Program-made: the position numbers and the translations under genes | Shown: positions 23,098-51,321 of the stretch, piece after piece | How the letters are laid out: each line of letters starts with the position of its first letter | Numbering within the stretch: position 1 is the first letter of the stretch | NCBI GenBank assembly: GCA_964187785.1 | Contig: OZ076409.1 | Coordinates: 61,506,001-61,570,000, forward strand | DNA from: Amphiscolops sp. MND2022 | Lineage: Eukaryota | DNA length: 64,000 nt | Reading direction: 5' to 3' | Notes under the pieces: generated by a model | The model's database searches: none | Told to the model about the DNA's origin: nothing | Seen by the model: only the letters and a program-made list of their open reading frames with translations

Positions 23098-23134
23098 TTA
23101 TAATAAAAAAATTATTGTGAAACTACGTGGAACA

Positions 23135-25313: not shown

Positions 25314-25604
25314 TAATTATTTAGTGATTAGTGATTATTTAGTGATTATTTAGTGATTCTTAGTGATCTCTAAATTTCTCTAAATTCCTCTAAGAATCAC
25401 TAAGGTTTCACTAAGAGCATTTATTTTCACTAAATATAATCGCTATAATTCGCTATAATCTTTAATCTTAGAGAAATAAATACTCTTAGAGACACTTAGT
25501 GAAACCTTAGTGATTTAGTGAAATTTGCTTAGTGACTACATAGTGATTACATAGAGATTACATAGTGATACTGAGTGATTCTTAGAGGAATTTAGTGATT
25601 TTTT
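25309..25604. repeat. Intergenic TAGTGATT-rich region with nested inverted repeats
   Basis: Perfect 21-bp IRs at 25395-25415/25495-25515 and 25381-25401/25574-25594. Confidence 0.75.
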
Positions 25605-25613
25605 ACTAAACAA

Positions 25614-26621: not shown

Positions 26622-26637
26622 GGACTTCGTGAGGAGA

Positions 26638-27690: not shown

Positions 27691-27703
27691 TTATTAAGTA
27701 TAA

Positions 27704-28210
27704 TTAGTGGATTTTCCCCAGATACAGGCCTTTACTATTAGTTCTTGCTTTTCTGTTTGTGTTGCTTGTGTTAGCTGCTTTGCTGCCTGCTTTGCTGCCT
27801 TTACTCGACAAACCTTCAGCTTTGTATAACCCCTTCCCTTGATGAACCAATTTAATAACGTCAGGGGCAGTTGCGGCAATTAATCGTGGATTTTTACTTG
27901 CTGCTGCAGTTCCAATATTTGCTGCTAATTCTAGTGCGCGGCCTGGATTATTGAGTATTTTCTTTCCAACATTTTTGGCTGCAGAACCTAAATGTTTGAA
28001 AAAGTCTCCCAATCCTTCCCCATCTATTGTTCGTTCAGATACAATTAGACTCTTATTTCTGTTACATATCATGCAGTTGCCACGTAATGTGTGTACGGGC
28101 CTGCCCATCTGTATCCCAGTGTTTGTAATTTCTCCATGAATATTTGTGGTGGGAGAATAATGTTTTCCACCAACACAATATGAATTATTCATAAATTTAT
28201 TATAACCCAT
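27704..28210 (-). CDS. Putative virion core/membrane-lytic protein (Zn-ribbon-like N-terminus, GEG site, amphipathic helix, basic tail)
   Basis: YCVGGKH...CMIC; DGEG followed by LGDFFKHLGSAAKNVGKKIL; Lys/Ala-rich C-terminus. Confidence 0.5.
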   Translation of the reverse strand: MGYNKFMNNSYCVGGKHYSPTTNIHGEITNTGIQMGRPVHTLRGNCMICNRNKSLIVSERTIDGEGLGDFFKHLGSAAKNVGKKILNNPGRALELAANIGTAAASKNPRLIAATAPDVIKLVHQGKGLYKAEGLSSKGSKAGSKAANTSNTNRKARTNSKGLYLGKIH

Positions 28211-28277
28211 TTATTAGAAAAAAATTATCATTTTTGTGGAGCTTCGTGAAAGCTATCGCGAAAGCTATCGCCCAACA

Positions 28278-29341
28278 TCATATTTTAATAATTTGAATTG
28301 TGAAGGTGAGTGTCTTCCCGTTGAAATCAACTGAATCATGATTAGAGTCCTCAAGGAAAAATTGAATGGTGTCCAGTCGTGTTTTGTTAATTGATTTGTA
28401 CGAAACAGTTGTGGGTTCTTTTATAATTTTATATCCGGGAGGTGCGCTTAAATTGAAAGAAAATAAAGTTTGTTCTCGTATACCATTAACAATTGAACCA
28501 TCTACACAGTCGCACTTCAGATGAACTTTGTCGGTGGTTGTTATCATGACTGGTTTTTCTGAAGTGTGAGTTCCGGATGGGTAATCACGTTGTGTAAAAC
28601 CCAGGACTTTGTTAAGTTTGGAGATAAAATGAATAGGGTTTGAGGTTGTTAAAACTGATTTCATCGATATTGTGTCGGGTATTATGTTGAATTCAATACT
28701 AAAAACTGTAAGATCCTTTTTGAATTTTGACTTATCATCTAATTCATAACCTGAATCAGTAATTATTTGTTTTATGGTATTATTTATTTCAGTCAGTTCG
28801 TATACACCTGGAACTAAATTTATATCAATAAACTCATTCTCAATTTCAAAGTTTGGAATAGTTATAGGAATGTTGCTCTTCATTTGCTTTAAATAGTCAA
28901 AACCTTTTTTTGGAAGTTTCTTCTTTTTTTTTATAACTAGTAAGTAAATATATATTAGCTTTTTCTATAAATTCATAGTAAAGTTTATTATTTTCTAAAT
29001 CGTAAGTTTCAAATAGTTTTTTTTATATTTGGCACCACTCCCGTGTCAAACTCAAGTGCATCGAGTTGTCGATCATTTAGAATAATCTGTAGTTTGTTAT
29101 TGCTGTTAGTGATATTATAAACTGTATTGTATACTTCTAAACTTGTTACTCCCATCATCCATTTTTCATTTAACGTGAGAGGAACATCGAATGAGAAAGA
29201 TTCTTTTTGTTTAGTCATTTTAAATTCTAGAGTTTCTTGTGGTTTAGAATGAGTATTTTCAACAATTTCTTGATTAGATTTTGCAATACTTAAAAGAAGA
29301 GATTCTTTTTTATTATAAGTTACGAAGGTGGATAGATCCAT
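28278..29341 (-). pseudogene. Minor capsid (penton) protein, frameshifted
   Basis: N-terminal FDVPLTLNEKWMMGVTSLEVYNTVYNI; C-terminal VHLKCDCVDGSIVNG...PPGYKIIKEP...VDFNG. Confidence 0.8.
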
Positions 29342-31763: not shown

Positions 31764-32472
31764 GAACAGAAAAAATATTTGAAATAATAAAACAAAACAC
31801 ATACGAGATGAAAAACAGCAGAAAAACGATAACAAAAGCATCATTTGCGAAGAAGAGGAAAGAGAAGAAATGAAGGTGAACTGTAGAAAGACTGAACAAA
31901 ACCGAAAAACAAATTTACGAACATCAAATTATTTAACTGCTGTCGCGTTATGACTAACGCTTAATCAATAATACAAATGCAACTGCAACAATAAAGTGCT
32001 CAACAAAAAACACCTGATTCAATAAAAAGCTCTACAAACGTCCCAGGGATACTCTTCCGTTCCTAATCAAAAATTCCCCCGCAAAAAATACAAAGCTAAT
32101 CAATTCTCTTTGTGCTACCGCGCAGTTTATGATTAAAAACACCTGATTTAATAAAAAGCTCAACGATCATCCCAGGGCTTCAGAGCCGTTCCTTATCAAA
32201 AATTCCCCTGCAAAAATACAAAGCTAATCAATTTCCTTTGAGCTACAGAGAAGTTTATTATTAAAAAAAACACCTGCATAAACAAAGCAGGAATTTGAAC
32301 TAACCTGGAGAAGGAGGGAGCTGAAGATAAATAACTAATGAAGTTGGGCGGCAGCTGAAACTTATAAAAAGGCCGCAGAATAATGGGATAAAAGAAGTTT
32401 CTTCTACCGCGGGATTGCACAAATGAAAAATTCTATTATTTACCGCGGAGATCTGAAATCTAATGCTAAGCT

Positions 32473-32536
32473 CTGATTGGCTGAACGAAAAACAGGCCAA
32501 TCAGGCACTTCGGCAGAAGTGCTGAACCGTTTTTAT
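32473..32536 (+). promoter_or_regulatory. Candidate LTR promoter: inverted CCAAT boxes and TATA-like element
   Basis: CTGATTGG (32473) and CCAATCAG (32497), then TTTTATA (~32530); same in the 3' LTR. Confidence 0.4.
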
Positions 32537-32896
32537 ACGGCGTGCACAGGCTGGAGCTTCATTCTTTCCTCCAACCGGCAGAGCTTCAACACCTAAAAAG
32601 CTCTCTCCCTTTCTCACTTCTACTTCTCTTCCCTTCAACCTGCTCCAACTCTACTTATCTTCTCTCCGCTAAATTCTTGAATTATTTTCCCCTTGGACTA
32701 AAAATTTCTATCTTACTTTCTTCCCCTTTTTGCTTTGGCTCTCAAATTTGCGAAGTCACAATCCCTCTTTCTTGAATTTTCTATCTTAGAGAATTCACCT
32801 CAATCCGACAACAGTCCCAGGTCTGGTGAGTGAAAAAATAACTTAGTTTCTTTTTTGTGGAGATTTCTGATTCTCCCCTTTCTAACTAAATTATAT

Positions 32897-33601
32897 CTTA
32901 GAAAAACTCCACTGATTCTACTCAGTGGTTGTTTAAAATATTTCTTAGAAAAGTTCCACTGATTCTACTCAGTGGTTGTTTAAAATATATCTTAGAAAAA
33001 TTCCACTGATTCTACTCAGTGGTTGTTTAAAATATAACTTAGAACAATTCCACTGATTCTACTAAGTGGTTGTTTAAAATATATCTTAGAAAAATTCCAC
33101 TGATTCTACTCAGTGGTTGTTTAAAATATAACTTAGAAAAATTCCACTGATTCTACTCAGTGGTTGTTTTAAATATATCTTAGAAAAATTTCACTGATTC
33201 TACTCAGTGGTTGTTTAAAATATTTCTTAGAAAAATTCCACTGATTCTACTCAGTGGTTGTTTAAAATATAACTTAGAACAACTCCACTGATTCTACTCA
33301 GTGGTTGTTTAAAATATATCTTAGAAAAATTCCACTGATTCTACTCAGTGGTTGTTTAAAATATAACTTAGAAAAACTCCACTGATTCTACTCAGTGGTT
33401 GTTTAAAATATATCTTAGAAAAATTTCACTGATTCTACTCAGTGGTTGTTCAAAATATATCTTAGAAAAATTCCACTGATTCTACTCAGTGGTTGTTTAA
33501 AATATATCTTAGAAAAATTCCACTGATTCTACTCAGTGGTTGTTTAAAATATATCTTAGAAAAATTCCGCTGATTCTACTCAATGGTTGTTTAAAATATA
33601 T
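32897..33601 (+). repeat. 47-bp tandem array (15 units), each with a CCACTGA-TTCTAC-TCAGTGG hairpin
   Basis: Unit CTTAGAAAAATTCCACTGATTCTACTCAGTGGTTGTTTAAAATATAT; 705 bp = 15 x 47. Confidence 0.95.
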
Positions 33602-34370
33602 CTTAGAAGAATACCAAATAAATGGTTGGCGTTACACTAGTACTTACAAAATCACTTCACCTTATTTACTCAGTAAGCTTGTGGCTTATAAAAAGTCCTA
33701 ATGCTGTCTCTCTACTCAACAGAGCAGTGACTTTAAAAAATTAAAACTCGCCGGTTTAAATTATCACCGGCTAAAACCATTTCTCATTTGGAGCTAATCA
33801 AAAAGCATTATCATTATGAAAGTGTAAAAGCTTACAATTTAGTCTGTAAATTTTATTACGAATTTTCTGATATGTATTAATGCTTTCTGATGTATTTTAT
33901 GAAGCTACTTTGCTCGAAGTCAAAATAAATCCTTCCAATTTACTGCTGAAGTAAATTAAGTAGTTATTTTACTGCTGGATTTAATTAAAGATGGAATAGA
34001 CACTGAGATGCCTGAAAAATTTTACTTAGTACTATTGTCCGTTCACGTGATATAATTCAACATAATTCCTTTCTATACTTTTCCGCTTTTCAGATAACTC
34101 ATTTACATACACTGCCTTGCACTTACTCACGCAACTCCCTTTGTTCGCACGTACACGCAAGGCACTTCCTTTCTAGTATTGCACGGAGTAGGCTTTGAGA
34201 CTTTCTTACTCATTTACAATCAATAATAGAATAGCCACCTGAAAGTAATTTTCACTATGCTACATAAGCTGAACTGACTAATATTGATAACGACTGAACA
34301 GTCCCTTGAAAAGAAAAGGGAACAAAAAGGAAATAGTAAATAGTAAAATCTATCCATGCGTGCGACAAAC

Positions 34371-34387
34371 TGGTGCGACCAGTGAGG
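34371..34387 (+). promoter_or_regulatory. Primer binding site of element B
   Basis: TGGTGCGACCAGTGAGG 3 nt after the LTR. Complement CCTCACTGGTCGCACCA is tRNA-3'-like (elongator Met or Ile-like; isotype uncertain). Confidence 0.65.
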
Positions 34388-35414
34388 CACCCTTCTCTCT
34401 CTTAGTAGAGAAGTAAATGAGCTATCTGTTAGAATCCCTACTCTCAGAAGTTAGGGTTAACTACCTATTTCTCTTAACATTACTTCTGATTTTCTTTTTT
34501 CTCCTACTGCCCCAATATGTGGCTTCCTTGGTCTTTATAAATCATAGAATTGCTAGTAAATACTCCAACAGAATCTCTCCAGCTTAACAGCTTTAGGAAG
34601 AGTCTGTGCACTGCTCAAATTAGTCCTCCCAATCCCCAAAAGGTTAGAGCTAACTTTTTTTTGCAGAAATTCTAGACTACATTCGGTCATAAAACAAGAA
34701 TGAAAATGCTTTCTAACACTGAATCTAAACCTACAGTTGGGATGTTCACTCAAGTCCAGACGGACACATATTAAGGAAAAGCCCGCCTAGGTCTCCTCGG
34801 AGGCTGATTGAAGGCCGTGAGCCCAGTGGGTGTCCCGGAACCTGTGTAGCATTCCAAGGTGGAAACCTAGAATTCTAAGAACTCTAGTGATAGTACCCTA
34901 GTGTTTGCATGATAGTGATCTTGGCCCCGCGCTACTTAATCCTCAGGACGAGAGTGACTGCCTCTGTTTGTTTGTTGTATTACTTCTACAAAAGCCATTG
35001 AAAGGCTAGACTAGCAAATTGAGTACCTTTTGGGACCGACTATACTTCCCACAATTTTTTTTGGGTTAAATTGGAGGATTGGTATACCCCGAACTGCCCT
35101 TTCTGTTAATCATTTAAAGTTAGCGGGATTTGTAAGTATCACCTATTATTTTGGGATTGAAGTATTAAACCCGGAGGACTAACGTCTCCTAAGCTGAGAG
35201 GTGAGATCTTAAAAACTTTTTTTTTTGCATTCTATTGAGTATATGCAAAGCCAGACCTGCCTAGATCTTATCATCTTTAGAACTCTAGCAAGAGCGTGTT
35301 TTACCTTAGTCGTTTGTGGTTATTTACAGAGACCTAGAGTATCCTACCTAATCGAATCTTTAATTTATTATTCGTTGCTACATTTTCTTTCTCTAATAAT
35401 TTCAACAGCTCACC

Positions 35415-36872
35415 ATGGCTGCGCAACATTACTTGGCTTATCCAGATCTCGGCCGAGACCAATTCACAGGAACCGACCCAGATCAAGATCCTGAACAATT
35501 TATACAGCTCATTGAAAAGAAGTTCCGGTTTTCTCATGGTGATACCCCAGCCAACGGACCAGCACTTGATGACTACAACTTCAGAAGAAAATCCTACTTT
35601 GCTACACTATTAAGAGGACCCGCAGCGGAGTGGTTGGAGACCAGCATCACAGACGCTAACACTTGGGCAGAAATCAGAGAAAGGTTCATCACACGATTCG
35701 CAGATGGCAGAAACAAATTTAGACACAGAATGGAAGCCGAACATGTCATCAGACGAGATGGAGAAGAAATAAAGAACTTCCTACACAGAATTAAAATAGT
35801 GGTTGGAAAAGGATGGCCAGATGACCTAGCCGGAGTCGCACAGAACAATAGAGACGCCGAAAGGACAGCTCAAGACAGACAAAGAAGACAGAGGTGCATT
35901 GACTACTCCCTGAGAGGCCTAAGACCTCCAAAGCTGAGAGAAAAGGCACACGAATATCTGATGGACCACCCGAATGCAACCTGGGAGCAATTTTCACAAG
36001 CAGTAATAAACAAAGACCTTTCTTACACTGTAACTACCGCCCTAACTGGCGGAGAGTCACACGCAGACCCACTCATACAAGAAATGCGAGACGACCTAAA
36101 GGGAATTAAACTACAAATAAAGGAACAGATGAACAATACTATCAACGCAGTAGAGAAAACAGTAGACCCTAATGCTACAGGACGAAGGATGGCCACTCGA
36201 TTCTGTGGCTACTGCAGAACAAATGGGCACACACCTAACTGGTGCAGAAAAAAGATGAGAGATGAGGAAGTCAAAAAGGTTCAAAACGAAGCGAATGCAG
36301 AGAGAAGAATAACATTCACCAACGATTACAATAAAAGAACGGGACCTGGGCACGGCTCAAGATTTCAGACAAGAATACCCGATTCAGAGATTCGGAAAAA
36401 TATGGAGGTTGCACATCAACTGGCACTTGCGGGAGCCATGCAAGCAACCCCTTCATGGAACCGAATTGACAGATCTCAGAACAGAAACTTTAACCCAGAA
36501 CGCAGATCTACAAAAACTAGATTCAGCTCCGGTAACCAGAGACTTTCGCAAGAGGTTAGAAGATCTTTTCCCAATAATTTTAACAGTCCCAGAAGCATTT
36601 CTCCAGGACCACAGAGAGCTAGATCTCCCTTTAACTTCAACAGAGACCGGCCTAACCCTTTTAGTCGCAACATACAACCCCTTCCACCAAGGAATAACTC
36701 AGTTTTTCAGAGACAACAACAAAACAGAAACGAAAGACCCAACACCCCTATTCAGTCTTACGAGCAAAGATTCCCAAAAACTAATGACATGGGAAGATCC
36801 AACACAGTACAATTCTTAGAAACTGACTACTCAGTGAATTCAGTAGCCGATTTTCGTCCTTTAAACTACTAA
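35415..36872 (+). CDS. gag: Gag (485 aa)
   Basis: Kozak CACCATGG; retrotransposon Gag helices (LLRGPAAEWL...WAEIRERFITRF); CCHC knuckle CGYCRTNGHTPNWC; intact. Confidence 0.9.
   Translation: MAAQHYLAYPDLGRDQFTGTDPDQDPEQFIQLIEKKFRFSHGDTPANGPALDDYNFRRKSYFATLLRGPAAEWLETSITDANTWAEIRERFITRFADGRNKFRHRMEAEHVIRRDGEEIKNFLHRIKIVVGKGWPDDLAGVAQNNRDAERTAQDRQRRQRCIDYSLRGLRPPKLREKAHEYLMDHPNATWEQFSQAVINKDLSYTVTTALTGGESHADPLIQEMRDDLKGIKLQIKEQMNNTINAVEKTVDPNATGRRMATRFCGYCRTNGHTPNWCRKKMRDEEVKKVQNEANAERRITFTNDYNKRTGPGHGSRFQTRIPDSEIRKNMEVAHQLALAGAMQATPSWNRIDRSQNRNFNPERRSTKTRFSSGNQRLSQEVRRSFPNNFNSPRSISPGPQRARSPFNFNRDRPNPFSRNIQPLPPRNNSVFQRQQQNRNERPNTPIQSYEQRFPKTNDMGRSNTVQFLETDYSVNSVADFRPLNY
36860..36866 (+). promoter_or_regulatory. 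-1 ribosomal frameshift slippery site T TTA AAC (gag-pol)
   Basis: Heptamer is in X XXY YYZ phase of gag, one codon before the gag stop; the -1 frame is the pol frame. Confidence 0.75.
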
Positions 36873-39800
36873 TGTCTCCGAAAAATAAAAGTAGCAGCAG
36901 TGCCCCACTAAAATTTAGTCTTAATCTTTATTATTTTGCTGCCGGAGACTCACAAAAAGATAGTGGCTTGGAAATCGAATTTCTACTTGACACTGGGGCA
37001 ACATCTTCAATCATCAACTATAGGACATTTAGAGAACTTTGCCAATTTCAACAAGACCTCGAACTCAGCAGGAGCAACAACACAACTCGGAACTACTCTG
37101 GTCAAATCATCCCTATGATGGGATACATTTCATTAAGACTCTATTATGACTCCGACGGCCAACATAACTTCCCTCTGACAGTCTGGATCACCGAGATGAA
37201 GACACAGGACCTTCTTGGAATGAATTTCTGCCAAGAGCAGATCAACAAAATACATTTCGACCTCCCCGGCAAAGAGCTCAAGAGACCTCTAAATACCTTC
37301 TGCTATGGTAGCCTTCAACTAAACAAAATATACCCCTATGTTTCGCAAATATTAACAGTCAAAATCCCTCACTCCATGTACATTGAGCCAAAAACAACAA
37401 GATGCTACAAATTTGCCTTCGAAAACGCGAAGAATTCCTTCCCTCCCGGATCTACATTCCTTCCAAACAGAAAGGCAGTTTCTACAGGACTCAACTTTAT
37501 AAACGTCCTTTGTACACGGTTTGAGAAGACCTTGCCAATTGTTATGGAAAACAACAAGAACCATACAATCACACTAGTTAAAGGAACTATTGGATACTCT
37601 ATGCTAGACGTCATTGACAAAGAAATCCCAAAATACCAGATTAGGAATCCTACCGAACTCACTTACACCATTTCAAGCGAAAATGAAGAATACAACGATT
37701 GTTTCTTACTACACGCTACTATCCCTTCACAAGATCTTAAAGATTGCATCAGAATAGAAGGAGGAAATTCTACAACAATACTCAACAGACCAGACTCTAT
37801 TATCATCTTTGTTCCGGCTGACCTAAAACCAGCCAAAGGCTTCTCTAAAGAAATTTTAACGAAAATACCTTCATTGAAAGACTCTTGCGCAAAACAGAAA
37901 CCTCAAAAAGGCGACACAATACCCTACTGGGATACAACTCTAAGGCGATTTATATACGTCCTAATCACTAAGGCTAAATCGAAAGACAAAATCGACCCAC
38001 AAATCTTAGCCCAATCGCTGGAAACACTAAAAGCCCACGCCAAATTGAATAATATCAAGACTGTTTCTATGTGACGAGAAGCCTCAGAACTAGAAGACTT
38101 TCAATGGCAAGATGTTACGCAAATTATTCAAGACGTCTTTGCCTATTCAGAAATGCAGCTCCGAATCTATACCAGAAACGAGCTAGATGTCTATGCAATG
38201 ACTACCAGAGGAGACCCTGAGTATGCATTAGAAGATGAAATACAACAATTTTAAGAAGAATTTCACTTAAAGCACAGAGAACTGGAAACTGACTTTACTA
38301 AAGATGCAAAGTCCTGCCAACCACCTTGTGACGAACAATTCAAGATATTTAGGCCCAAAGAAGACAACGAACGACTCATTGAATACTATCTTCAATATCA
38401 GAATAAAGAAGCAGTTCAATACATCAAAGAATTCGACTTTCGCTACTCGGACCTCACAGACGGAGAACTTGTTCTCCTCATAGACCTACTGATGGATGCT
38501 AGAGATGTATATTCACAACACAAGTTCGATGTTGGGAAAACTAGACAGAAATTCAACATTAAACTAGAACGGGGAGCAATTCTGAAGAGACAGAGACCTA
38601 GTAAAGTACCACTACACCTACGAGAAAAGTTAGAAAAACTACTAACACAACTCAAAGAGGCTGACTTCATAAGAGAGATGGGCGATGACGACGAAATGGG
38701 ATCTCTATTCGTAAACCCCATCATCTTACAACCAAAACATGATTACGTCAAGCTGATCATAGACGCAAGATACCTGAATTCAGTGACTGATCTAACAAAC
38801 TACTCCTGGCCCTTGGAACCAATCCAAACCATAATGACGCTCATCAACAGGAAAATATTCTCAGTAAGCGATCTCTCTTGCGCTTTTCACCAAGTCTCAC
38901 TAGACGAGCCCACACAGAAGCTCACTAGCTTCATAATTGGCGGTAAACAATATACATTTACCAGAGGATTCTACGGACTTAAAGGATTACCCAGCTTCTT
39001 CAGCTGTATGATGACAATCCATTTCGAACCCCTCATCAAGAAGAAACAAGCAATTACCTACATAGACGACACGTTAATGCAGGCCAAAAACAAACAAGAG
39101 ATGTTCACAGTGATCCAAGAATACCATTACCTACTACGGAAAGCAGGACTCAAGGCAGCGCCCGACAAAACACTATTCTTCTTGCGAAAAGTCAAGTTCC
39201 TGGGACATGTAATTGCAGCAGAAGGACTACAACCTGTAGCTAAACGAGTCAGGGATCTTCACAATCTTAAATCGCCAAAAACGAAAACTGAGGTAAAGAG
39301 CTTCCTAGGGGCTCTGGGATTTTATAGCTGTTACATCAAGAATCTACATGTCGACAGTCGACCGTTCTACGAGCTGACCAAGAAAGATACAAACTTTTGT
39401 TGGAAACAAGAACACGAAGACCTCTTCCTAGAAATAAAGAAGAGAATCAGCGAAGACACGGTTCTTGCAGTACCTTCAACGAAATACCCATTTCATATAC
39501 ACGTAGACTCGTCCAACGTAGGGACAGGATGTATACTCATACAACAATTTCCAGAAGGAAAACGGATCATCTCTTTCAATTCCAGAATTTTCGCAAAAGA
39601 AGAACAAAAGATGTCCACACTACATAGAGAACTATGTGGAATAGTCTCAGCACTACAAACATACGAGCACTATATCATTGGATCTCCCTTCCCGATCTAC
39701 CTATATTGTGACCATAAACCAATTCTTTATCTCTGGGGACGAAAAGGACAGGTTTCACCGCGATTCTTTAGGTACCAAGTGATTGTTTCCAAGTTTCCCA

Positions 39801-42349
39801 ATCTAAAGATAATATGGACGCCGGGAAGCAACCTAGCCTTCCCCGATATACTCAGCCAAAATGTCTCAATCGAAGAACACAAGAAACACCAACTTAGCCA
39901 CAAGATCCTACCCAACGACATACACTTCTTCGACGAGCACGGGACTCAAGTTCACTACAAAATCAAACACGAGGAAAACGACGAAACTTCAAAGAATGAC
40001 TTCTACCCTATATTGTACGAAAAGGGGGATGAACGGAAAATCCTTCACCTACAAAACGACGGTAATAACTCCACAGTTAACAATGTCTACGAGGAACCTA
40101 ACCTGCCGAAGATTGAATCGGCACAAAGTTGTTTTGACGCCGGAAAAGAAATCAGAAATTACGAAGAGCTACGAATCAGATCTGGCACGCAAGAAAGCAC
40201 CTCCGATATATCACAAAATACTTACAGCTCGGTTAACAGCGATGCTGACGACGAAGCCCCCGCAAATGATGAACTTCAAGAAGTGAACGAAACAAATTAT
40301 GGGCCTAATACGAGTTCCCCGACACTCAAACAATGTACCTCCAAAAATGATAAGGCAATAGAAAATTACGAGCTCCTTAAAACCACAGCAGGAAAACAAA
40401 AGACATCAACTCGAGAACTCATAGGCCAACTCGATAAGATTTCAAAGAAGCAGAGCTAAACGTCACAACAATTTCACAAGAACAAATTAATGACCCAGTC
40501 CTCAGCGTGGTCCGACAATGGATGAAGACAGGAAACAAGCCTACGCCAAAGTCACCAGAGTTACAACACTCGAAAGGCCTCATGCGCTACTTTCAGGAAT
40601 TCGACAGACTAACTATAGAAGAACAAGGAAACCTCCTCTGTTACAACGAGCCAACTGACGACCCGGCAGACGAAAATCTGAGAATCTGCCTACCTCTCTC
40701 TCTATTTCTAGCTTGCTTCCGAATGGGACATTACAATGACTTGGGCGGCCACATGGGAGCTGAAAAAACCTACCTAAATGCTAAAAGATTTTACTACTGG
40801 CCTGGAATGCACGACTGGATCTGTGCCCTCACACAGGATTGTGTTAGCTGCCAATCTAACAAATCGAAACAACGAAGTACCACTGGAAGACTGTGAAACC
40901 GAGACCCCAGTATTCAGAACAGTTCATATCGATCACAAGGGACCACTTAATCCTCCCAGTCGCGGAAATTCACACTGCCTTCTTATCATCGACGCCTTCT
41001 CACGTTACCTGATGGCATACCCAGTCAGAGACACAGGAGCACAATCTACAATCAACGCGATGGAAAAATGGATTATGCACTATGGCATCCCTCAATCTAT
41101 CATACACGATAGAGGAACAGCTTTCGTAAACACGGAATTTGTCAATTGGACTAAAGAGTTTGGCATCACACTGCGACCTAGGACTGCACACTCACCCTGG
41201 ACAAATGGCAAAGTCGAAACCCAAAATCAACATATTGCACGATACTGGAGAAATTTCTTAAACGAATCAGGAAACAACTGGGCCCAACTAGCAGCTAAAT
41301 TTGCATTCGCCCACAACACAAGCGTCAACTACACAACTGGAAAGACCCCCTACGAAATAGTGTTTTGCAACAAACCACAAATACCTATGAGTCTGAAGCT
41401 GGGACTCTATAGGAACAAAAACAAGAACTGCAGATCACAGTTCTGTCACGGATTACCTCCTCATTGCCATAGCGAAAACCAAGTCAAAAACGATTTACTA
41501 AATGGATTACTACGACCACAACTATCACAAAGCCTGTTGGAACGAGAAACAGACTTCAAAAAGGTCTACTCATCCACATACGAAAAGTGCAGAAAACAAA
41601 CAGCTCGATCACACGCCTACAGAAACAGGTTTAAACTCGGAAATCACCTCAACATCGGACAAAAGGTTCTGCTAGAAAACCATCGCAAGGATCTCTCCAA
41701 AAGCCAAAAACTTCAACAACTGCGATTAGGACCTTTTACGGTTACCAAGAGAATTACCAATACGACCTACCAAATAACAGAAGATAAAAACCCCGAGAAT
41801 CTCCGAACTGTACACAGGAATGATCTAATAGAATACTTTCCTAAAGAGGAAACACTCTCCCCTCTTATCGAAGAGTACACTACTCCCCACCGTGGAGACA
41901 CTGATTTTTATAATAATCTGATCAAGGGAAGAATTGAACAACTTAATGTTTCAGAGCCACAAACACCCGGAGATCTCTGCATATTGCCAGTACGGAATCA
42001 ACAAAACCAAATACCTGCCCGCAAAAGAACGCAACCCCCCCAGAGCACAGACTCTGGTATCATCTCTCCAGAAAATCAGTTGTCGACAACCCCAAAGACC
42101 CCCGATCAGCCTCCTACCTCACATCCTCGAGACACGGCAACCCCTATCCTGACGTAAACACAACGCCAACCAACACCCCCAACTAACACCCCGGCATCTT
42201 CTACCAAGTCCACGACTCCCTTACAAGAATTAAGAAGAGCAGTTGCCAGACAACTCGAAAGAAATCCACGTTATCAACGAGCACAGCCCAATCAACCAGC
42301 ACAACAGTCCGTCCTTCGCGAAAGGACTCGAATTGGTTACAAAGAATAA
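36872..42349 (+). pseudogene. pol: Pol: protease - (dUTPase-like?) - macrodomain - RT - RNase H - integrase; disabled
   Basis: LLDTGA; TYIDD; HVDSS...ELCG...YCDHKP; HYNDLGGH...CVSC; HIDHKGP, HDRG, GKVETQN. Stops at 38072, 38252 and 42155; frameshifts near 40430 and 40870; natural end LRERTRIGYKE* at 42349. Confidence 0.92.
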
Positions 42350-42356
42350 CCTTACC

Positions 42357-42743
42357 ATGCCATGCCATAAAGTATATCTAAATTTGTCCTGGCAAGTTCC
42401 ACGAGAACTTCAGTCCTTAGGCATTCTCAATGTAACAATCACAAAAATCTACTGGACCTACACAAACAAGCTAGTTAGGATTTGCTTCTACTCTAGAGAC
42501 CCAGACCCGAGCGATAATAAACAACCAACGCCCCGAAAATCAAACATACCTATACGCCCAGAATCTAAGACCTTTGCTCTTCTATATCAACACCTCGCAT
42601 ACTATGCAGTCACACACCACGACTCTATCCTAGAAGAACTCCTATCCTACATGCCTACCCTAATACCTGACCTACAACCTTCTCCACCTAATACTCAAAA
42701 GGACCTATTCTGCTGCTCCACTATCTCCTCACCTAGCTCCTAG
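42357..42743 (+). CDS. Accessory ORF B1 (128 aa, small-protein family)
   Basis: ATG 8 nt after the pol end; VYLNLSWQVP...ITKIYW...VRICF...IRPESKTFALLYQHLAYY. Confidence 0.55.
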   Translation: MPCHKVYLNLSWQVPRELQSLGILNVTITKIYWTYTNKLVRICFYSRDPDPSDNKQPTPRKSNIPIRPESKTFALLYQHLAYYAVTHHDSILEELLSYMPTLIPDLQPSPPNTQKDLFCCSTISSPSS

Positions 42744-42893
42744 CCGGCCGCAATTTCATGATGCAAGACTACTGTATATCTACATTATAATTATATTTGA
42801 TTATCCTTTGTGCAACCCCGTAGTATACTTTATGAAATAGCAGACGAAGACAGAAGCAAATAAAAACTGGTTGAGTGGAGTAGCCATAAAGGC

Positions 42894-43493
42894 CTACTCC
42901 AGCTCTACAAAGCCCCCCAAACTAGCCAACTTCTCTAGCTGGCTACGCCTCTCATCGTTGGTCCAGGCGGGCCACAGCCGACGAAACTGGCCCCTCTGAT
43001 ACGTAGTTAGACGCGAATACCCCAGGATATAACTCCTGAGCTGGAACAGGAGAACTTCCCCCTGCCCCGCCAGAAGTCTTGACTCCCAGGGTCGCCCATA
43101 CGACTGCAGCAAAAACGATGCAAAAGCATCCGAGATGGGGGCACGGACGACCATGTACCCCCGCACCCCCCTTGTGTCTCTATTAGTCTCCACCCATCCC
43201 TCTAGCCGCCTGACATCGCCCCAATCATATAGATCCATAAAGGTCTCTCTGTCGTAGTTGTTGAGATGACCCGGTATCAGCCTACCGGCCAGACGACTAA
43301 CAGGCGGAGCGGCAGAACTCACTGGTACTGATGTGTCCGGACGACTAGGCCCGGCCACAGACATTACTGAGGAAGACATAACAGCAGCAGACGGAGACGA
43401 GACGACGACAGTAGATGTAGTAGAGGCAGTAACGCCCGACGACCCACTAGGGGCAAGATTATTAGTATTATTGCTGCTCATTACTAAATGCAA
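42894..43493 (-). CDS. Antisense accessory ORF (Ser/Thr-rich N-terminus plus globular C-terminus)
   Basis: 199-codon open frame, GC-rich against the A-rich element; probable ATG at MSSNN. Confidence 0.55.
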   Translation of the reverse strand: MHLVMSSNNTNNLAPSGSSGVTASTTSTVVVSSPSAAVMSSSVMSVAGPSRPDTSVPVSSAAPPVSRLAGRLIPGHLNNYDRETFMDLYDWGDVRRLEGWVETNRDTRGVRGYMVVRAPISDAFASFLLQSYGRPWESRLLAGQGEVLLFQLRSYILGYSRLTTYQRGQFRRLWPAWTNDERRSQLEKLASLGGFVELE

Positions 43494-43755
43494 AGTAGCT
43501 ATTTATAAAGTCATGTAAACCTAAATAAATATATTGATTTAATACTATTACGTCTATACTTGCTTACCTAGTATTCCGAGATTCAATATATTATCTGTCC
43601 TTCATTTCTCGGTAACCAACCACGAACTCCTACGAAGTCGTGTTAATAATTTTTATTATATGACTGTTCTCAAACGCAATGAAAATAACTGATGATTCCA
43701 TTCTCAGATTTGCTATGTTTGATGAACAAAAACCACGAGGCAAAATCACACACAG

Positions 43756-43977
43756 ATGATCATAATCTTCAAGATCGACAACCGTCTTTCACAAATTACA
43801 GATATATAGAAGGAACCCTCAACACAGAACATCATCATACAAGCCTACGCAATAGCAGAAGAAGAAAGTGAAACCTACACGTGTGTGCCAGCTTCACCTA
43901 TCTACCCACTACTGGAGAGCTTGCTATATAACAACACCCCTACTGAAGTCTTCACTAGAGCCAAGTCAGTCATTTGA
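43756..43977 (+). pseudogene. Accessory ORF B2 (small-protein family) with internal TAG at 43807
   Basis: MIIIFKIDNRLSQITDI*KEPSTQNIIIQAY...TCVPASPIYPLLESLL; its TGA overlaps the next ATG (TGATG). Confidence 0.45.
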
Positions 43978-44372
43978 TGTCCTCTCCCGCAGTAGCTGTC
44001 TTCCGCGGAAATAATTACTACTTCCACACCCAATTTCAACCTCCTGTTCCTTGGACGCCCATACAACTCAAGGGCCAATACGAAATACAGTCAATCTTCT
44101 ACGAGATCACTACCTCTGCGATTCAAGTTCGTATCCTCACGCCAGAAGACAAAGAAGCTCTGGTCCTCTTCCTTATTCACTTCGGGTCCAAAGAATACGC
44201 CTACTTATTCCTTTCGTTTAGGCAGTACATACTCCAACACCCCGCTGTCCTCAAGGACAAGGCTTTCGACGACCTGGTTTATTTTATGGACATCACTCTC
44301 ACTTCCAACCCCTTCGAAGAAGAAGTTAGAATCAAATACCTTCACAGCCTAGTCGACACCTATGATGTTTAA
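43977..44372 (+). CDS. Accessory ORF B3 (small-protein family)
   Basis: EIQSIFY...IQVRI...IHFGSKEYAYLFLSFRQY; its end overlaps the start of the next ORF. Confidence 0.55.
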   Translation: MSSPAVAVFRGNNYYFHTQFQPPVPWTPIQLKGQYEIQSIFYEITTSAIQVRILTPEDKEALVLFLIHFGSKEYAYLFLSFRQYILQHPAVLKDKAFDDLVYFMDITLTSNPFEEEVRIKYLHSLVDTYDV

Positions 44373-44706
44373 GATTCAACTCAAATTTCTCTGGCGCCAC
44401 CCTGAAACGAACACCCTCTTAGAAATTCTCTCTATCGCTTGGAAGGACAGCGCTCCTGTGATCCAAATAGAAATCCATAGTCTTCGACCACACCAACCGG
44501 GTCACTGGCTCATCCCGGTAGACACCGACTCACAAGAAGCTGCCGCTCTCGCACAATCCCTCAAGGAATACAGACAGATAGCATACTTAAATCACAATCA
44601 CCCTCTTACACTCTTCCTCCTCAACAAACTCATCGACTTCATCGACTCGAGAAGAAAAAACAAACCCTCTCCCAGTCTGCAATTCATCAGTGACAATTAC
44701 AGCTAA
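44362..44706 (+). CDS. Accessory ORF B4 (small-protein family)
   Basis: IQLKFLWRHP...ILSIAW...IQIEI...VDTDSQEAAALAQSLKEY. Confidence 0.55.
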   Translation: MMFKIQLKFLWRHPETNTLLEILSIAWKDSAPVIQIEIHSLRPHQPGHWLIPVDTDSQEAAALAQSLKEYRQIAYLNHNHPLTLFLLNKLIDFIDSRRKNKPSPSLQFISDNYS

Positions 44707-44766
44707 ATCTTCACAAATAGTTGAAGTTAGTCTCTTTCAAATACTCTTCATAGGCACTCTTTTTCT

Positions 44767-45054
44767 AACAGTAGTGAGGTTACTACTATAAAATTTTAGC
44801 CTCCGCTTAGCGGAGTGCCTGCTAAGCTGCCGGTTTGATATTACGGTCTGCTTTTTTACGGTCTTACTCCTGGATCCATTACCTTAACTACAACTAAAAG
44901 AATAACAGACTTCTCTTTTTCTTAGGTACGTGTGAACCGTGTGAACAGTAGTGAGGTTACTACTATAAAATTTTAACCTCCGCTTAGTGTTGTACCAGCT
45001 AAGCTGCCGGTTTGATATTACGGCTTACCTTTTTACGGCCTTACAACGGATCCA
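44767..45054 (+). other. Two ~112-nt copies of a structured (pseudoknot-like) RNA element upstream of env
   Basis: Copies at 44767-44878 and 44944-45054; stems conserved, loop of hairpin 2 diverged. Confidence 0.6.
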
Positions 45055-45112
45055 CATCTTCGAATAAAAGATTTCACCTGATTGATTTTGCGAAGACTGC
45101 AAAATTTCAAAA

Positions 45113-47194
45113 ATGAAACTATTTTTTCTACTCTTTTTATGCGCCTATTACGCGCCCGTTGTGATCTCACAATGCCCTACGCCAAACCTCGCTAGCGTTG
45201 CTAAAAAATTGCGAGTAACTCATTTCGACTGCGGCGAAATGACCCAAAACAAGCTCTACGCATTGAATCAAGTAGAGCAATGCAATGTGGCCCCAGAAAA
45301 CTTAGAAGTAAGTCGTGCTAGCGTAACGTTATACACTAAACACTTTCGCCGCACTATCAACGCCACTATGTGCCGTGTGAAACATCAGAGTGAAGAATGG
45401 CATTGTGGTCATCACGACCACTCCAGTATGTCAATTCTACACAACGGAATCACTAGCGATCTTTCCTTGTCCCCCGAAACCTGTAAGGTAATGGGTGAAG
45501 GAAAAGAAGTCATAATCCATGGACAACTCCTTAGATTTAAAAAAGGAGTGAAACAAGTACAGACGAGAAACGCCAAATACGGAAAAAGTTGGGACGGGGT
45601 ACGCGACCCTGATACCCGCAATGAGTGCAAAACAGGAGGATGGATCAAACGCGAAACTTTCGAATCTCACATTCAAGACGCTGAGTTATCAGTCAAGACC
45701 CGAGATGGAAAGGTCCTCACACCGTTTCAGATGGTCCTTCCCTGTCCTTTGGAGCAACTTGGTTGTGAAACGACGTCACTGGACCCCTACGCATACACAT
45801 GGGCAGAACCAGATAATTGCGTGCTTGCAGTACGATTCCACTACCAAATTTTTATTCGAGGTCTACAACAGACCACAAAAGTACTGCAACAAACCCGACG
45901 ATGTATACCCGACCAACTACCAATCCCTGTACGTTTCAATCCAACTTGGTGGCTTCGACATGACCTCCGGCAGAAGACTCGGCATCTCCATGGGCGAGAC
46001 ATCTAAACTTCAATATTACTCACCTGACGATGGTTCTGGTAATGGCCGACTCCACCTCTTCAGAGGACCCAGCGACTCTAACCCCAATACACCACATTAT
46101 CTCAACATGGATTACGAGCTCTACCAAGGAACAAAGTTAGATTATCTCTTTTTTCAGAGCACCCGCTTACTTGAAGCTTCAGAAATCCAGCTTTTGAAAG
46201 CTCAATGTGAACAGGAAAGAACACAAATCCTCACCATCTTGATGCTCTCCATGGAAAACCCACGACTTGCCGGATACATGCTCACGGGAAATCGCTCAAT
46301 GTTCATGAACACAGATGGTAGCCTAGCATGGCTCTACCACTGCCCAGAATCCCACTCACCTCTTCACACGATGAACCAATGCTACGACCGCGTACCCATC
46401 TTCTACAAAGGAGTGGTCGCCTTCGTGGACCCCATCACCCGACAGACTTATCCTAATGCGAACGTGCACAATTGCAGCGATCGCATTAAGAACCTCTTCC
46501 AACTGGACATGGAAGACAAAGATTCCTGGTTTACCCTCACTCTTTCACCCGAACACCGTGACCGACCTGCTATCTTCGGACCCAAGGACATCCAACCACT
46601 GATTACCAGATCCTTTCCTGGATCACAAGACGCAGGAATGTACACGCCGAAACAACTCGGAATTTTGGGATAACATCCTCATCAGCGCAGCTTCACGAAA
46701 TGCCCTCCAGAAGTTTTCACGAGAACTCATCATCCCTTCAATGGCCCATATCGGACCCGAATCATTTGCGTATTATGCACCCCGTACCGATTTTTACGTT
46801 GACGGTATGATATCACCCGACTACTTCAAAAATCAATTCCTCGAAACCTTCGGAAGTATATCGTACGTCCTCGAACTCTGCGGCGCGTATTTTGGCGCCT
46901 TTCTTTTTTATTAAATTCGTTATAGATATCACGGTCCTAGTCTTCCGCTATTTCGAACTTCGTCACCTTACTGGTAATACCCTGAGCTTCACTAAAACCT
47001 TGCTCAGTGCTTCGTACAATCTTTTCTTTACCTCCGTTTTAACTTCCGTATTCACCCCGCGGGCCCCTCTCGAGGATAGCATTGAACAAAGAACAAAAAC
47101 GGAAGACGAAATAAAAACGGTAGAACTTCAAAACCTGAAACAAAAAGAGGAATCACTATACCCCTCTGTACAGAGCTTCGTAGCTCCAATTTAA
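45113..47194 (+). pseudogene. env: Envelope glycoprotein, chuvirus/herpes-gB-like (class III) type, frameshifted
   Basis: Signal peptide MKLFFLLFLCAYYAPVVIS; Cys pattern HFDC...EQC...MCRV...HCGHHDH...TC...C; C-terminal hydrophobic segments. Frameshifts near 45830, 46660 and 46890. Confidence 0.75.
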
Positions 47195-47230
47195 AAGTTA
47201 AACCATTCTCATTGAATATACTACTTTTAG

Positions 47231-47812
47231 CAATTAGACTCAATCTTCGACCTACCAAACCTGGACGACGACAACCCTAACCCTAACTTAGAGGATGACT
47301 TAGAAATTGAGCCCTTATCGCCATCAGACCTGCTGTCCCCAGTATCCCCCACAACAATCAACTCCCTCCTAGACCCACCAGACTCAACTGTTCCTTCTCC
47401 ACACCCAAGGGCACATACAACAACGCCCTCGTCAACTACATCAGAGCGACCCCCCTTCCCGCTGTCGTTCACAGAAGAGGTAGCACCTATACCATCAACC
47501 CAACATCCACCCCGGTTCGGCGGAAAAGATATAAGAAGAATCTTCCCCAGAAAACACCACCACCAATGGAACAACGAGATAGCGGACCAGGCACCACTAA
47601 ATAAACAACACAAAAGGGAATACTATACAAAAAGGGCCAGATATGTTAAAAGGCCTAGGTTCAATGCAGATTTAAAGTATACCCTACTTCCTCAATTCTC
47701 ATCATGGAACATCGTTTTCTGGGACAACAAGAGACAAGAATACACTATAGAGAACCCTGCACTCAAAGGACAAAGACTAACTGTCCCCCTAAGATCAATA
47801 TCCGCACAATGA
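47231..47812 (+). CDS. ATG-less 193-codon Pro/Ser/Asp-rich then basic open frame (possible spliced exon)
   Basis: Open from just after CTACTTTTAG (acceptor-like) to TGA at 47810, which overlaps the ATG of the TRAF ORF; absent from the ORF track because it lacks a start codon. Confidence 0.45.
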   Translation, partial: QLDSIFDLPNLDDDNPNPNLEDDLEIEPLSPSDLLSPVSPTTINSLLDPPDSTVPSPHPRAHTTTPSSTTSERPPFPLSFTEEVAPIPSTQHPPRFGGKDIRRIFPRKHHHQWNNEIADQAPLNKQHKREYYTKRARYVKRPRFNADLKYTLLPQFSSWNIVFWDNKRQEYTIENPALKGQRLTVPLRSISAQ

Positions 47813-48753
47813 ATCATAGGCTAAACCCTAATGCTACGCCCTTCATCCCAAAAAATAATCATTCTTCCCATATTACTACACCCGACTGGCCCCCCATATC
47901 GAAACCAGATGACCCAGAAGAACAAGAGACTCTCGAGGGAATAGAAAGATTGAGCAAATGGATATCAGAATTAGAAACCTCAACCATATCAAGTTGCCAA
48001 AACGAAAAACTACTAGAAACCCCGGTCCTTCGGAAATCATTTCCATTAACAGAAACCTTACAGCCTAAAACGAAGTTTGATGGCAAAGTGAAACAACTCT
48101 ACAATTCGGCAGAAGAAGCAAAGACTAGATGTCTACAACTAGAGTCCACAATATCCAACCTACAAGCAACCATAAAATACCAATGCTCCCTCCTCAGAAA
48201 AACTAATATCATCGATGGGAGAAACAATGAACCCTTCCTGTGGCAGATTCCCGCATTTTCTACGCTATATCGAAAAGCAAAAACCTTCCCGGATGAACCA
48301 CTAAGCAACTTCAAATGTAGCTTCACCAGCCCCATCTATACTACTCACCTAGCAGGCTGCAAAATATCACTTAGACTGTTTCCATATGGGATAAACCTCT
48401 TTCGGGGAACCCACTCTTCCATTTGCTGTGAGCTCCATCTTAGCGACTTCACCCTCCCTCGAACATGGCCTTTCGACCGACAATTAGAAATCTCCATCAT
48501 AGATCAAAAAGACAAAAACAACAAGTGGTCTACCTACTTCCCAAACAACTCTGACAAGAACAACCAAGATGACACCCACGCCGGCACCTACACACTTCCT
48601 GACCTCATGAGAGAAGATTTCATCCCTCACACAAAACTATTGGTCAACTTCAGGGAAGCCTTTTTAAACAACGACTCTGTAATCCTCCAAATTAAATTTA
48701 ATGAAGCCCCCTTTAAAATCCCAAGTGCTAAAGAGACCCCCCTTCATTCCTGA
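47809..48753 (+). CDS. PAM2 motif + coiled coil + TRAF-C/MATH domain protein
   Basis: LNPNATPFIP; heptads (CLQLESTISNLQATI); FLWQIPAF...FTSPIY...GCKISLRLFPYG...GTHSS...WPF...ISIIDQ...FIPH...FLNNDSVILQI; no RING. An upstream in-frame ATG exists at 47704. Confidence 0.85.
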   Translation: MNHRLNPNATPFIPKNNHSSHITTPDWPPISKPDDPEEQETLEGIERLSKWISELETSTISSCQNEKLLETPVLRKSFPLTETLQPKTKFDGKVKQLYNSAEEAKTRCLQLESTISNLQATIKYQCSLLRKTNIIDGRNNEPFLWQIPAFSTLYRKAKTFPDEPLSNFKCSFTSPIYTTHLAGCKISLRLFPYGINLFRGTHSSICCELHLSDFTLPRTWPFDRQLEISIIDQKDKNNKWSTYFPNNSDKNNQDDTHAGTYTLPDLMREDFIPHTKLLVNFREAFLNNDSVILQIKFNEAPFKIPSAKETPLHS

Positions 48754-48789
48754 CCTACCCCAGATACCGAATTCTTTTTTCTCCCTGCC

Positions 48790-48800
48790 AGGGGGGTGAG
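48790..48800 (+). promoter_or_regulatory. Polypurine tract of element B
   Basis: AGGGGGGTGAG just before the 3' LTR. Confidence 0.7.
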
Positions 48801-48801
48801 C

Positions 48802-51321
48802 TGTCGCGTTATGACTAACGCTTAATCAATAATACAAATGCAACTGCAACAATAAAGTGCTCAACAAAAAACACCTGATTTAATAAAAAGCTCTACAAAC
48901 GTCCCAGGGATACTCTTCCGTTCCTAATCAAAAATTCCCCCGCAAAAAATACAAAGCTAATCAATTCTCTTTGTGCTACCGCGCAGTTTATGATTAAAAA
49001 CACCTGATTTAATAAAAAGCTCAACGATCATCCCAGGGCTTCAGAGCCGTTCCTTATCAAAAATTCCGCTGCAAAAATACAAAGCTAATCAATTTCCTTT
49101 GAGCTACAGAGAAGTTTATTATTAAAAAACACCTGCATAAACAAAGCAGGAAATTGAACTAACCTGGAGAAGGAGGGAGCTGAAGATAAATAACTAATGA
49201 AGTAGGGCGGCAGCTGAAACTTATAAAAAGGCCGCAGAATAATGGGATAAAAGAAGTTTCTTCTACCGCGGGATTGCACAAATGAAAAATTCTATTATTT
49301 ACCGCGGAGATCTGAAATCTAATGCTAAGCTCTGATTGGCTGAACGAAAAACAGGCCAATCAGGCACTTCGGCAGAAGTGCTGAACCGTTTTTATACGGC
49401 GTGCACAGGCTGGAGCTTCATTCTTTCCTCCAACCGGCAGAGCTTCAACACCTAAAAAGCTCTCTCCCTTTCTCACTTCTACTTCTCTTCCCTTCAACCT
49501 GCTCCAACTCTACTTAACTTCTCTCCGCTAAATTCTTGAATTATTTTCCCCTTGGACTAAAAACTTCTATCTTACTTTCTTCCCCTTTTTGCTTTGGCTC
49601 TCAAATTTGCGAAGTCACAATCCCTCTTTCTTGAATTTTCTATCTTAGAGAATTCACCTCAATCCGACAACAGTCCCAGGTCTGGTGAGTGAAAAAATAA
49701 CTTAGTTTCTTTTTTTGTGAAGATTTCTGATTCTCCCCTTTCTAACTAAATTATATCTTAGAAAAATTCCACTGACTCTACTCAGTGGTTGTTTAAAATA
49801 TTTCTTAGAAAAATTCCACTGATTCTACTCAGTGGTTGTTTAAAATATAACTTAGAAAAATTCCACTGATTCTACTCAGTGGTTGTTTAAAATATATCTT
49901 AGAAAAATTTCACTGATTCTACTCAGTGGTTGTTTAAAATATTTCTTAGAAAAATTCCACTGATTCTACTCAGTGGTTGTTTAAAATATATCTTAGAAAA
50001 ATTCCACTGATTCTACTCAGTGGTTGTTTAAAATATAACTTAGAAAAATTCCACTGACTCTACTCAGTGGTTGTTTAAAATATATCTTAGAAAAATTTCA
50101 CTGATTCTACTCAGTGGTTGTTTAAAATATTTCTTAGAAAAATTCCACTGATTCTACTCAGTGGTTGTTTAAAATATATCTTAGAAAAATTCCACTGATT
50201 CTACTCAGTGGTTGTTTAAAATATAACTTAGAAAAATTCCACTGATTCTACTCAGTGGTTGTTTAAAATATTTCTTAGAAAAATTCCACTGATTCTACTC
50301 AGTGGTTGTTTAAAATATATCTTAGAAAAATTCCACTGATTCTACTCAGTGGTTGTTTAAAATATAACTTAGAACAATTCCACTGATTCTACTCAGTGGT
50401 TGTTTAAAATATATCTTAGAAAAATTCCACTGATTCTACTCAGTGGTTGTTTAAAATATAACTTAGAAAAATTCCACTGATTCTACTCAGTGGTTGTTTA
50501 AAATATATCTTAGAAAAATTTCACTGATTCTACTCAGTGGTTGTTTAAAATATATCTTAGAAGAACACTAAATAAATGGTTGGCGTTACACTAGTACTTA
50601 CAAAATCACTTCACCTTATTTACTCAGTAAGCTTGTGTCTTATAAAAAGTCCTAATGCTGTCTCTCTACTCAACAGAGCAGTGACTTTAAAAAACTAAAA
50701 CTCGCCGGTTTAAATTATCACCGGCTAAAACCATTTCTCATTTGGAGCTAATCAAAAAGCATTTTCATTATGAAAGTGTAAAAGCTTACAATTTAGTCTG
50801 TAAATTTTATTACGAATTTTCTGATATGTATTAATGCTTTCTGATGTATTTTATGAAGCTACTTTGCTCGAAGTCAAAATAAATCCTTCCAATTTACTGC
50901 TGAAGTAAAGTAAGTAGTTATTTTACTGCTGGATTTAAATAAAGATGGAATAGACACTGAGATGCCTGAAAAATTTTACTTAGTCCTATTGTCCGTTCAC
51001 GTGATATAATTCAACATATTTCCTTTCTATACTTTTCCGCTTTTCAGATAACTCATTTACATACACTGCCTTGCACTTACTCACGCAACTCCCTTTGTTC
51101 GCACGTACACGCAAGGCACTTCCTTTCTAGTATTGCACGGAGTAGGCTTTGAGACTTTCTTACTCATTTACAATCAATAATAGAATAGCCACCTGAAAGT
51201 AATTTTCACTATGCTACATAAGCTGAACTGACTAATATTGATAACGACTGAACAGTCCCTTGAAAAGAAAAGGGAACAAAAAGGAAATAGTAAATAGTAA
51301 AATCTATCCATGCGTGCGACA
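48802..51321 (+). repeat. 3' LTR of element B (2520 bp)
   Basis: Direct repeat of 31941-34367. Confidence 0.95.
49757..50555 (+). repeat. 47-bp tandem hairpin array (17 units)
   Basis: 799 bp = 17 x 47; same unit as in the 5' LTR. Confidence 0.95.

Follow-up and report, generated by a model that had tools for sequence, protein, structure and literature searches.

A tandem, covarying module with predicted pseudoknots in front of env in a young LTR retroelement of Amphiscolops and in its env-less relatives

The region in front of env in a young LTR retroelement of Amphiscolops sp. MND2022 carries a repeated, covarying module that goes beyond chance. Our comparisons indicate that the array of these modules is a real, uncatalogued RNA fold, most likely working like the transport or packaging signals known from other retroelements. 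The array lies in a 64,000-nucleotide stretch of a 1.07-Gb eukaryotic assembly, and this whole stretch is referred to as the window.

The array and its host element

The array is hosted by a Ty3/Gypsy-type LTR element, young by its LTRs, that spans about 31941-51321 of the window; its LTRs, gag-pol, ORF-B and ORF-C, array and env are on the plus strand. It is flanked by a 4-bp target duplication (CTGC) and its LTRs are 99.1-99.3% identical when the 47-nt arrays are set aside. The 5' LTR (31941-34367, TG..CA), delimited by repeat and LTR comparison, holds a 47-nt tandem array and is directly followed by a probable primer-binding site. Based on ORFs and domains, gag-PR-RT-RH-IN (35400-42157) is split into several broken frames in the window copy; in relatives gag-pol is a single open frame of ~1850 aa. 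The accessory ORF-B and ORF-C (43959-44706; ORFs and alignment) encode small alignable proteins and are connected by a stop/start overlap. The array follows ORF-C (stop at 44706) and precedes the env AUG, and its first module begins 46 nt downstream of that stop. env itself (45113-47194; ORFs and domain) encodes a Monjiviricetes-type fusion glycoprotein (PF24664), again in several broken frames in the window copy, and is followed by the 3' LTR (48802-51321; LTR comparison).

A Pfam search with ORF-B and ORF-C returned no family above the cut-off. The structure model of ORF-C is confident (pLDDT 84), and comparison of this model gave nothing clear (no Foldseek match at E<=0.001; best Z 5.0; Atlas 0.75), so the ORF-C fold points to no trans-acting partner for the array. 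More generally, an accessory protein family of ~105-155 aa (42234-44706) occurs in tandem with stop/start overlaps in three lineages, and its confident model of four strands and three helices matched no known fold or family. The interval between pol and the accessory genes also holds an antisense ORF of ~200 aa (42894-43502, minus strand), which is kept in relatives and has no Pfam match, and a MATH/TRAF-domain ORF (47659-48753) between env and the 3' LTR is a possible host-signalling mimic. Elsewhere in the window we noted a Polinton-like element (~16200-29000) with a double jelly-roll capsid domain and an A32-type ATPase, and a repeat pair of 98-99% identity, 6.6 kb apart, around an 872-aa ORF without Pfam match (~5550-13230).

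Architecture, covariation and conservation of the module

The first-pass annotation had proposed a duplicated pseudoknot and hairpin module just upstream of env, and both copies with all of the named stems are indeed present. The repeat consists of 101-nt copies at 44767-44867 and 44944-45044, which are 89% identical and 177 nt apart. The full module measures ~115 nt, starts ~15-20 nt earlier than first placed and includes a third small hairpin (P5) behind the two hairpins already described. The predicted sense-RNA fold comprises two nested pseudoknots, the inner one of H type, with two hairpins downstream of them. The inner pseudoknot (44770-44803 in module 1) is built on one stem, S1 (AGTAGT/ACTACT; 44770-75 with 44782-87, and within 44947-64 in module 2). 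Its 6-nt loop (44776-81) is fully paired as S2 with the proposed downstream partner, AGCCTC at 44798-803 in the first and AACCTC at 44975-80 in the second copy, and an A/U linker (44788-97) lies between. Hairpin P3 (44805-44827, 7 bp) follows. It had been described as a hairpin with a "diverged" 9-nt loop; the hairpin is present, but the loop holds a conserved pairing partner, GTGCC at 44815-19, for the 5' strand GGCAC of the outer, covariation-supported pairing P0 (44753-44757). The last part of module 1 (44829-44862) comprises P4, the second of the hairpins proposed earlier (GCCG...CGG, present in both copies), with 4 bp and a near-invariant 11-nt loop, and a small P5/tail that is slightly decayed in the window copy. 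After a linker (44863-44924), which array comparison shows to be poorly conserved between modules and which ends in a pyrimidine tract, module 2 starts with the P0 5' strand GGTAC (44925-44929) and continues (44947-45039) with the inner pseudoknot (44947-80), P3 (44982-45004, with the P0 partner GTACC at 44992-96), P4 (45006-24) and P5 (45027-39). As had been suggested, differences between the copies keep pairing, and the changes at paired positions are swaps between G.U and Watson-Crick pairs.

The pyrimidine tract and the adjoining AG|GTACGT (~44911-31) had been noted between the copies in the notation of a splice site. The sequence is there, but it does not hold up as a splice site: no more than 71 of 108 module contexts have AG directly before it, and the bases are the P0 strand of module 2, which pairs with the P3 loop. 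A search with the spliced-junction pattern gave 4 matches versus 15 for the control, none of them in the host element, and no spliced retrocopy was found.

The GGYAC 5' strand also fits the module tail (94% paired, mostly with one-sided change) in a pairing that excludes P5. Given this second conserved partner, the module may switch between two states, the pseudoknot and a closed multi-branch form. A search within the element for long-range complements of S1, the P4 loop or the tail gave one weak match only. The tail (45025-45036) presumably resembles U5 snRNA loop 1 with one extra U.

A single copy alone is not beyond chance, since 20 shuffles of the 64-kb window gave on average 1.1 simple pseudoknots of such shape when both strands were counted. 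Thermodynamic folding is weak as well (z -1.2 to -1.4 for the sense strand, folded without pseudoknots), and the case therefore rests on comparison. Genome-wide, a 21-nt core pattern has 260 exact matches versus 2 for the reversed control. All 30 loci selected by env carry the array, with 1-5 modules each, and within the five arrays compared internally modules are 85-100% identical and linkers ~51-70%.

Covariation supports a structured RNA. We aligned 29 modules, hand-picked from 54 non-redundant variants plus a few others with undecayed copies favoured, and 95.9% of the 782 cells are paired, compared to 21-51% in slid registers. Two-sided changes affect 10 of 27 pairs, a value matched by none of 500 shuffles, a control that is inflated by kinship among the sequences. 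S2, P0, P3, P4 and P5 covary or wobble, while S1 is invariant and, never showing a two-sided change, has its pairing supported by conservation alone. A lineage at ~65% env identity contributes compensatory changes in S2, P3 and P4. When strand and P0 were scored in 145 of 153 module contexts, the middle pair of P0 was C-G in 104, U-A in 27, U.G in 3 and C.A in 2 modules. Among 108 contexts, GGCAC is combined with a GTGCC loop 60 times, GGTAC with GTACC 21 times and GGCAC with GTACC twice, which probably reflects few independent events. The 3-bp P5 alternates between G-C (99) and G.U (32). Over the 145 modules, the excess of G.U cells (200) over A.C cells (55) identifies the sense RNA as the folded strand.

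These data also bear on a DNA-level explanation, in which a TATA-like box in each module (44787-93 and 44964-70) would form an internal env promoter comparable to Penv of the Oikopleura Tor elements. TATAAAA is found in the window lineage and TATAAATA in the modules of a sister lineage. Tor3b/4b are likewise env-bearing LTR elements of an invertebrate in which env mRNA does not arise by ordinary splicing; they differ in that env is transcribed from an internal promoter, and the available text of PMC4402516 describes no RNA array. For the present array we consider a promoter highly improbable, as the compensatory changes, including those in stems upstream of the supposed start, and the excess of G.U over A.C demand an RNA fold, and as the array is kept without env (see below). 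An A-rich linker is moreover expected in H-type pseudoknots, which counts against the promoter reading.

Besides pairing, the primary sequence is strongly retained. Compared to the same lineage at ~65% env identity, 48-52 of the 54 positions of the module core are the same (89-96%), while only 7 of 26 fourfold sites in env and 11 of 26 in ORF-C are identical. As judged from this comparison, the modules are under purifying selection at a distance where synonymous sites are near saturation.

Using permissive E-values, Rfam contained no relevant family for the window region and five related loci, and ARAGORN called no tRNA in six loci. A covariance model of the module, run on the window and on eight further loci from sister or distant lineages, recovered only the two window copies significantly. 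No env relatives were found in metagenome contigs, the core pattern had no match in viral contigs, and its two metagenome matches came without the rest of the module, so that these two collections yielded no homologue outside the source genome. The open-access literature, supplements aside, contained no description of the motif. An undescribed class of self-cleaving ribozyme is the explanation to which we give least credit. The compact nested pseudoknots with invariant unpaired bases and a 5' strand that begins with GG after a variable base would be in line with it, but there is no Rfam ribozyme match (weak, unrelated hits stay below the gathering score), and cleavage in the middle of the genome would destroy the template for reverse transcription. 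Presumably, the strand order is also at odds with HDV-like, twister, pistol and hammerhead folds.

In the position of the array, sister lineages (45-50% env identity) have tandem repeats of their own, and one of these lineages has five modules. In this lineage (L069 1401-2158, also L070 and L071) the five tandem modules have a different predicted fold with compensatory changes, comprising an 8-bp stem with internal loop, an A-rich linker and two hairpins. Several copies hold two AAGACA-like words per module, no ATG occurs in 1093 nt, and the corresponding core pattern has 616 genome matches. A third lineage (L063-L068) shows a two- to three-fold repeat ~600 nt before env with short hairpins and a T-loop/B-box-like word, in which no tRNA was called.

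Retention of the array in small elements

Loci fetched for absence of a listed env match revealed an internal env deletion in 9 of 10 cases, with a shared breakpoint near window positions 45273/46264 in 8 of those 10 loci. The upstream stretches examined belong to small LTR-bounded elements, in which gag and pol are absent and the array is accompanied by two short ORFs and by scraps of env. In three young copies the LTR pairs are 99.4-100% identical. A search for the deletion junction matched in all 40 cases scored (out of 140 candidates), and the array was present in each of 30 fetched small-element loci with 1-4 modules. Of the 1-kb 5' leader, these elements share only ~85-145 nt at 70-77% identity. 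Their own ORFs of ~103 and 183 aa (L150 8496-9391 and relatives) lie just past the primer site and have no Pfam match. Thus, a family devoid of gag, pol and a full env evidently transposes and, according to the variation described below, keeps the array under purifying selection.

The 490-nt env remnant of the small elements is neutral, with 181/175/206 differences by codon position and stops present, and its identity to the closer env-bearing references is 71-78%. Variation was then compared in 18 two-module copies as a matched set, from which 12 of the 30 loci were omitted due to other copy numbers or missing pieces; in this set, modules contain 7 shared variants in 220 columns compared to 122 in 765 columns of the flanks (Fisher p=0.0009 for shared versus singleton variants). 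Per column, this corresponds to 0.009 and 0.055 for the modules, 0.19 and 0.155 for the linkers and 0.19 for the env scrap. An earlier, unmatched run with 29 loci gave p=0.002 for the first and p=0.095 for the last module. Since the sequences are related and array parts have been exchanged between some small and env-bearing elements, these p-values overstate independence. The modules of the small elements share 83-98% identity with their counterparts in env-bearing elements, the linkers 65-81% with one exception of 100%. That modules stay conserved on both sides of a drifting linker is better explained by selection than by copying of the whole stretch from helper RNA.

Low variation extends into the beginning of env: the first 159 nt have 0.057 shared variants per column, and ORF2 is likewise low with 0.072. 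A 40-aa env stub is encoded in 17 of 28 small-element copies, its AUG is kept in 27 of 28, and the differences by codon position (3/4/5) show no bias. Three array loci of the sister lineage without listed env match were checked as well, and one is devoid of env while two keep most or all of it, too little for any conclusion on this lineage.

The retention of modules in elements without a full env argues against env expression as their main job. Of the structured-RNA route to env expression proposed in the first-pass annotation, the conserved RNA and an AUG-depleted env leader remain, but not the main function.

Export, packaging and translation

Between the last accessory ORF and the env AUG, ATG is the most depleted trinucleotide (4 observed versus 25.7 expected, in a count that pools five lineages and in which repeats lower the effective sample), with a milder deficit of CAT in the same region (27 versus 42) and no ATG in 1093 nt before env in a sister lineage. 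From this depletion, env mRNA probably carries the array in its scanned leader, which argues against removal of the array as an intron. An intron from the donor-like GTTAGT at 44726 to an acceptor near 45095 was rejected, as no spliced retrocopy was found; its motifs are fairly conserved and look like those of a few host introns with approximate placement. GTTAGT is part of a conserved word (44717-44731) just past the ORF-C stop, which is preceded by ATG in most relatives and by ATA here, and for which a splice donor, the start of a short uORF and a hairpin loop are possible readings.

Under a broadened IRES concept, the modules would recruit or retain 40S subunits that scan to the env AUG and, in the small elements, to the 40-aa signal-peptide stub. 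This is in line with the ATG depletion, with the stop/start overlaps that couple the accessory ORFs upstream of the array, and with the retention of the env stub with few shared variants. We nevertheless regard a translation element as clearly unlikely to be the explanation, because modules are conserved where full Env cannot be made. Distant env lineages, in which no array was seen, are ATG-free over 1.2-1.7 kb before env (L083 2084-3749, L085 2172-3805, L086 2527-3685), so that AUG depletion does not need the module and gives it, on its own, no translational job. These stretches are apparently one long methionine-less frame rich in Ser, Pro and Thr, which points to non-AUG initiation combined with leaky scanning. 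In the window copy, the env frame is open from 45086 onwards, a point 47 nt past the end of module 2 and 27 nt ahead of the AUG, which excludes direct initiation in the manner of type 6 IRESs. The strand order of the module (single strand first, hairpin last on the folded strand) also appears, on our understanding, to be the reverse of type 6. The dicistrovirus type 6 IGR IRES, as far as the accessible part of bioRxiv 10.1101/2024.04.17.590008 describes it, may resemble the module in its compact H-type pseudoknot inside a second one and is similar in total size, but at the level of secondary structure its defining features are missing, with no PKI directly before an open frame, and the module is tandem.

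Tandem exoribonuclease-resistant RNAs, which would set the 5' end of env RNA or of a non-coding sub-RNA, are another conceivable use of a tandem compact double pseudoknot. Viral xrRNAs (flavivirus classes 1/2, plant-virus class 3) are tandem, pseudoknotted and sometimes intergenic, and plant viruses have intergenic xrRNAs upstream of ORFs according to the available portions of PMC6299227 and PMC12397905. At the level of secondary structure, the class-defining junctions are absent from the module: its covariation-supported structure contains no three-way junction whose double pseudoknot rings the 5' end, as in classes 1/2 (defined in the accessible text of PMC12397905), and no P1-P2 stack with a J1/2-L2B contact and apical-loop pseudoknot, as in class 3, and the inner pseudoknot is single-stemmed. 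Moreover, frameshift-type H pseudoknots fail to stall Xrn1 (available text of PMC10321173), and a block in the middle of the genome would be of little cis benefit to a parasitic element, yet env-less elements keep the module. An xrRNA is therefore very unlikely.

Packaging or dimerisation is a stronger, if still somewhat unlikely, alternative, in which Gag would recognise the fold or modules would pair between RNAs via GGYAC and its partner loop or via palindromes. The small elements have lost most of their leader but keep the array, and its presence in 30 of 30 loci of these trans-mobilised non-autonomous elements is a necessary, if not specific, feature of such a signal. The linker after S1 forms, together with the next base, a 10-nt palindrome in 103 of 160 contexts, and the 6-nt palindrome GGATCC follows 100 of 160 modules; besides, the two alternative conserved partners of the 5' strand suggest a switch. 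On the other hand, GGATCC is absent from 60 of the 160 contexts, pairing through the A/U palindrome gives a very weak duplex (-1.8 kcal/mol), and the AUG depletion seemingly places the array on env mRNA too, which a packaging signal normally avoids. For Ty1, a role of the 5' pseudoknot in encapsidation could not be demonstrated, according to the accessible part of PMC4974528.

We favour, tentatively and with somewhat less than even confidence, a cis-acting post-transcriptional transport signal for nuclear exit and use of the unspliced element RNA. A host export factor, or else a protein of the element, would recognise the compact module with its near-invariant P4 loop, and each further copy would offer another binding site. 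env mRNA would start at or upstream of the array and carry it in its AUG-free leader, so that genomic RNA and env RNA would both use the export signal. Such a signal would fit the position of the array, its duplication, its pseudoknots and its apparent presence on both RNAs. A non-autonomous element must keep the signals that act in cis on its own RNA, and the mapping of mini-Ty1 illustrates this logic of retention (PMC4974528, in the part available). The MusD MTE offers a likeness as a non-coding structured RNA in the 3' half of a murine LTR retrotransposon, the function of which depends on a pseudoknot and a loop-loop (kissing) interaction (accessible text of PMC4588558 and PMC3362945). In contrast to the module with its ~115 nt and 1-5 copies upstream of env, the MTE is a single ~400-nt element beside the 3' LTR; no sequence link between the two is apparent, and export by the module is predicted by analogy.

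The CTE fold is a long hairpin with internal loops, and in this respect the pseudoknotted module differs from CTE-type signals. A likeness lies in the duplicated cis-elements for NXF1-dependent export of unspliced RNA, namely the RSV direct repeats, which bind NXF1, and CTE-type elements (MPMV CTE, gamma-CTE), as given in the available text of PMC7551171. The gamma-CTE motif AAGACA described there is found in 0 of 160 module spans. Also to be set against export are that packaging or RNA stabilisation would explain retention in cis just as well, that the low variation and AUG retention of the env stub are compatible with a translational role, and that sister lineages at 45-50% env identity carry other repeats which the covariance model of the module does not recognise. 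More speculatively, and in our view rather unlikely, the module might represent a new class of modular RNA switch in env-bearing retrotransposons that is tunable by copy number, in which the double pseudoknot would flip to the multi-branch form and route RNA between export or packaging and env translation, and for which sister lineages would have evolved different tandem folds at the same site.

To our knowledge, cis-signals for export and packaging have been mapped in few retroelements, mostly of vertebrates and yeast. In this context, the small elements amount to a natural deletion experiment, in which gag and pol are gone together with the larger part of env and of the 5' leader, and a unit of ~115 nt appears to be kept under selection. 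A structure in front of env need not serve env, and the array offers a small, covariation-defined RNA fold that is amenable to probing and reporter assays.
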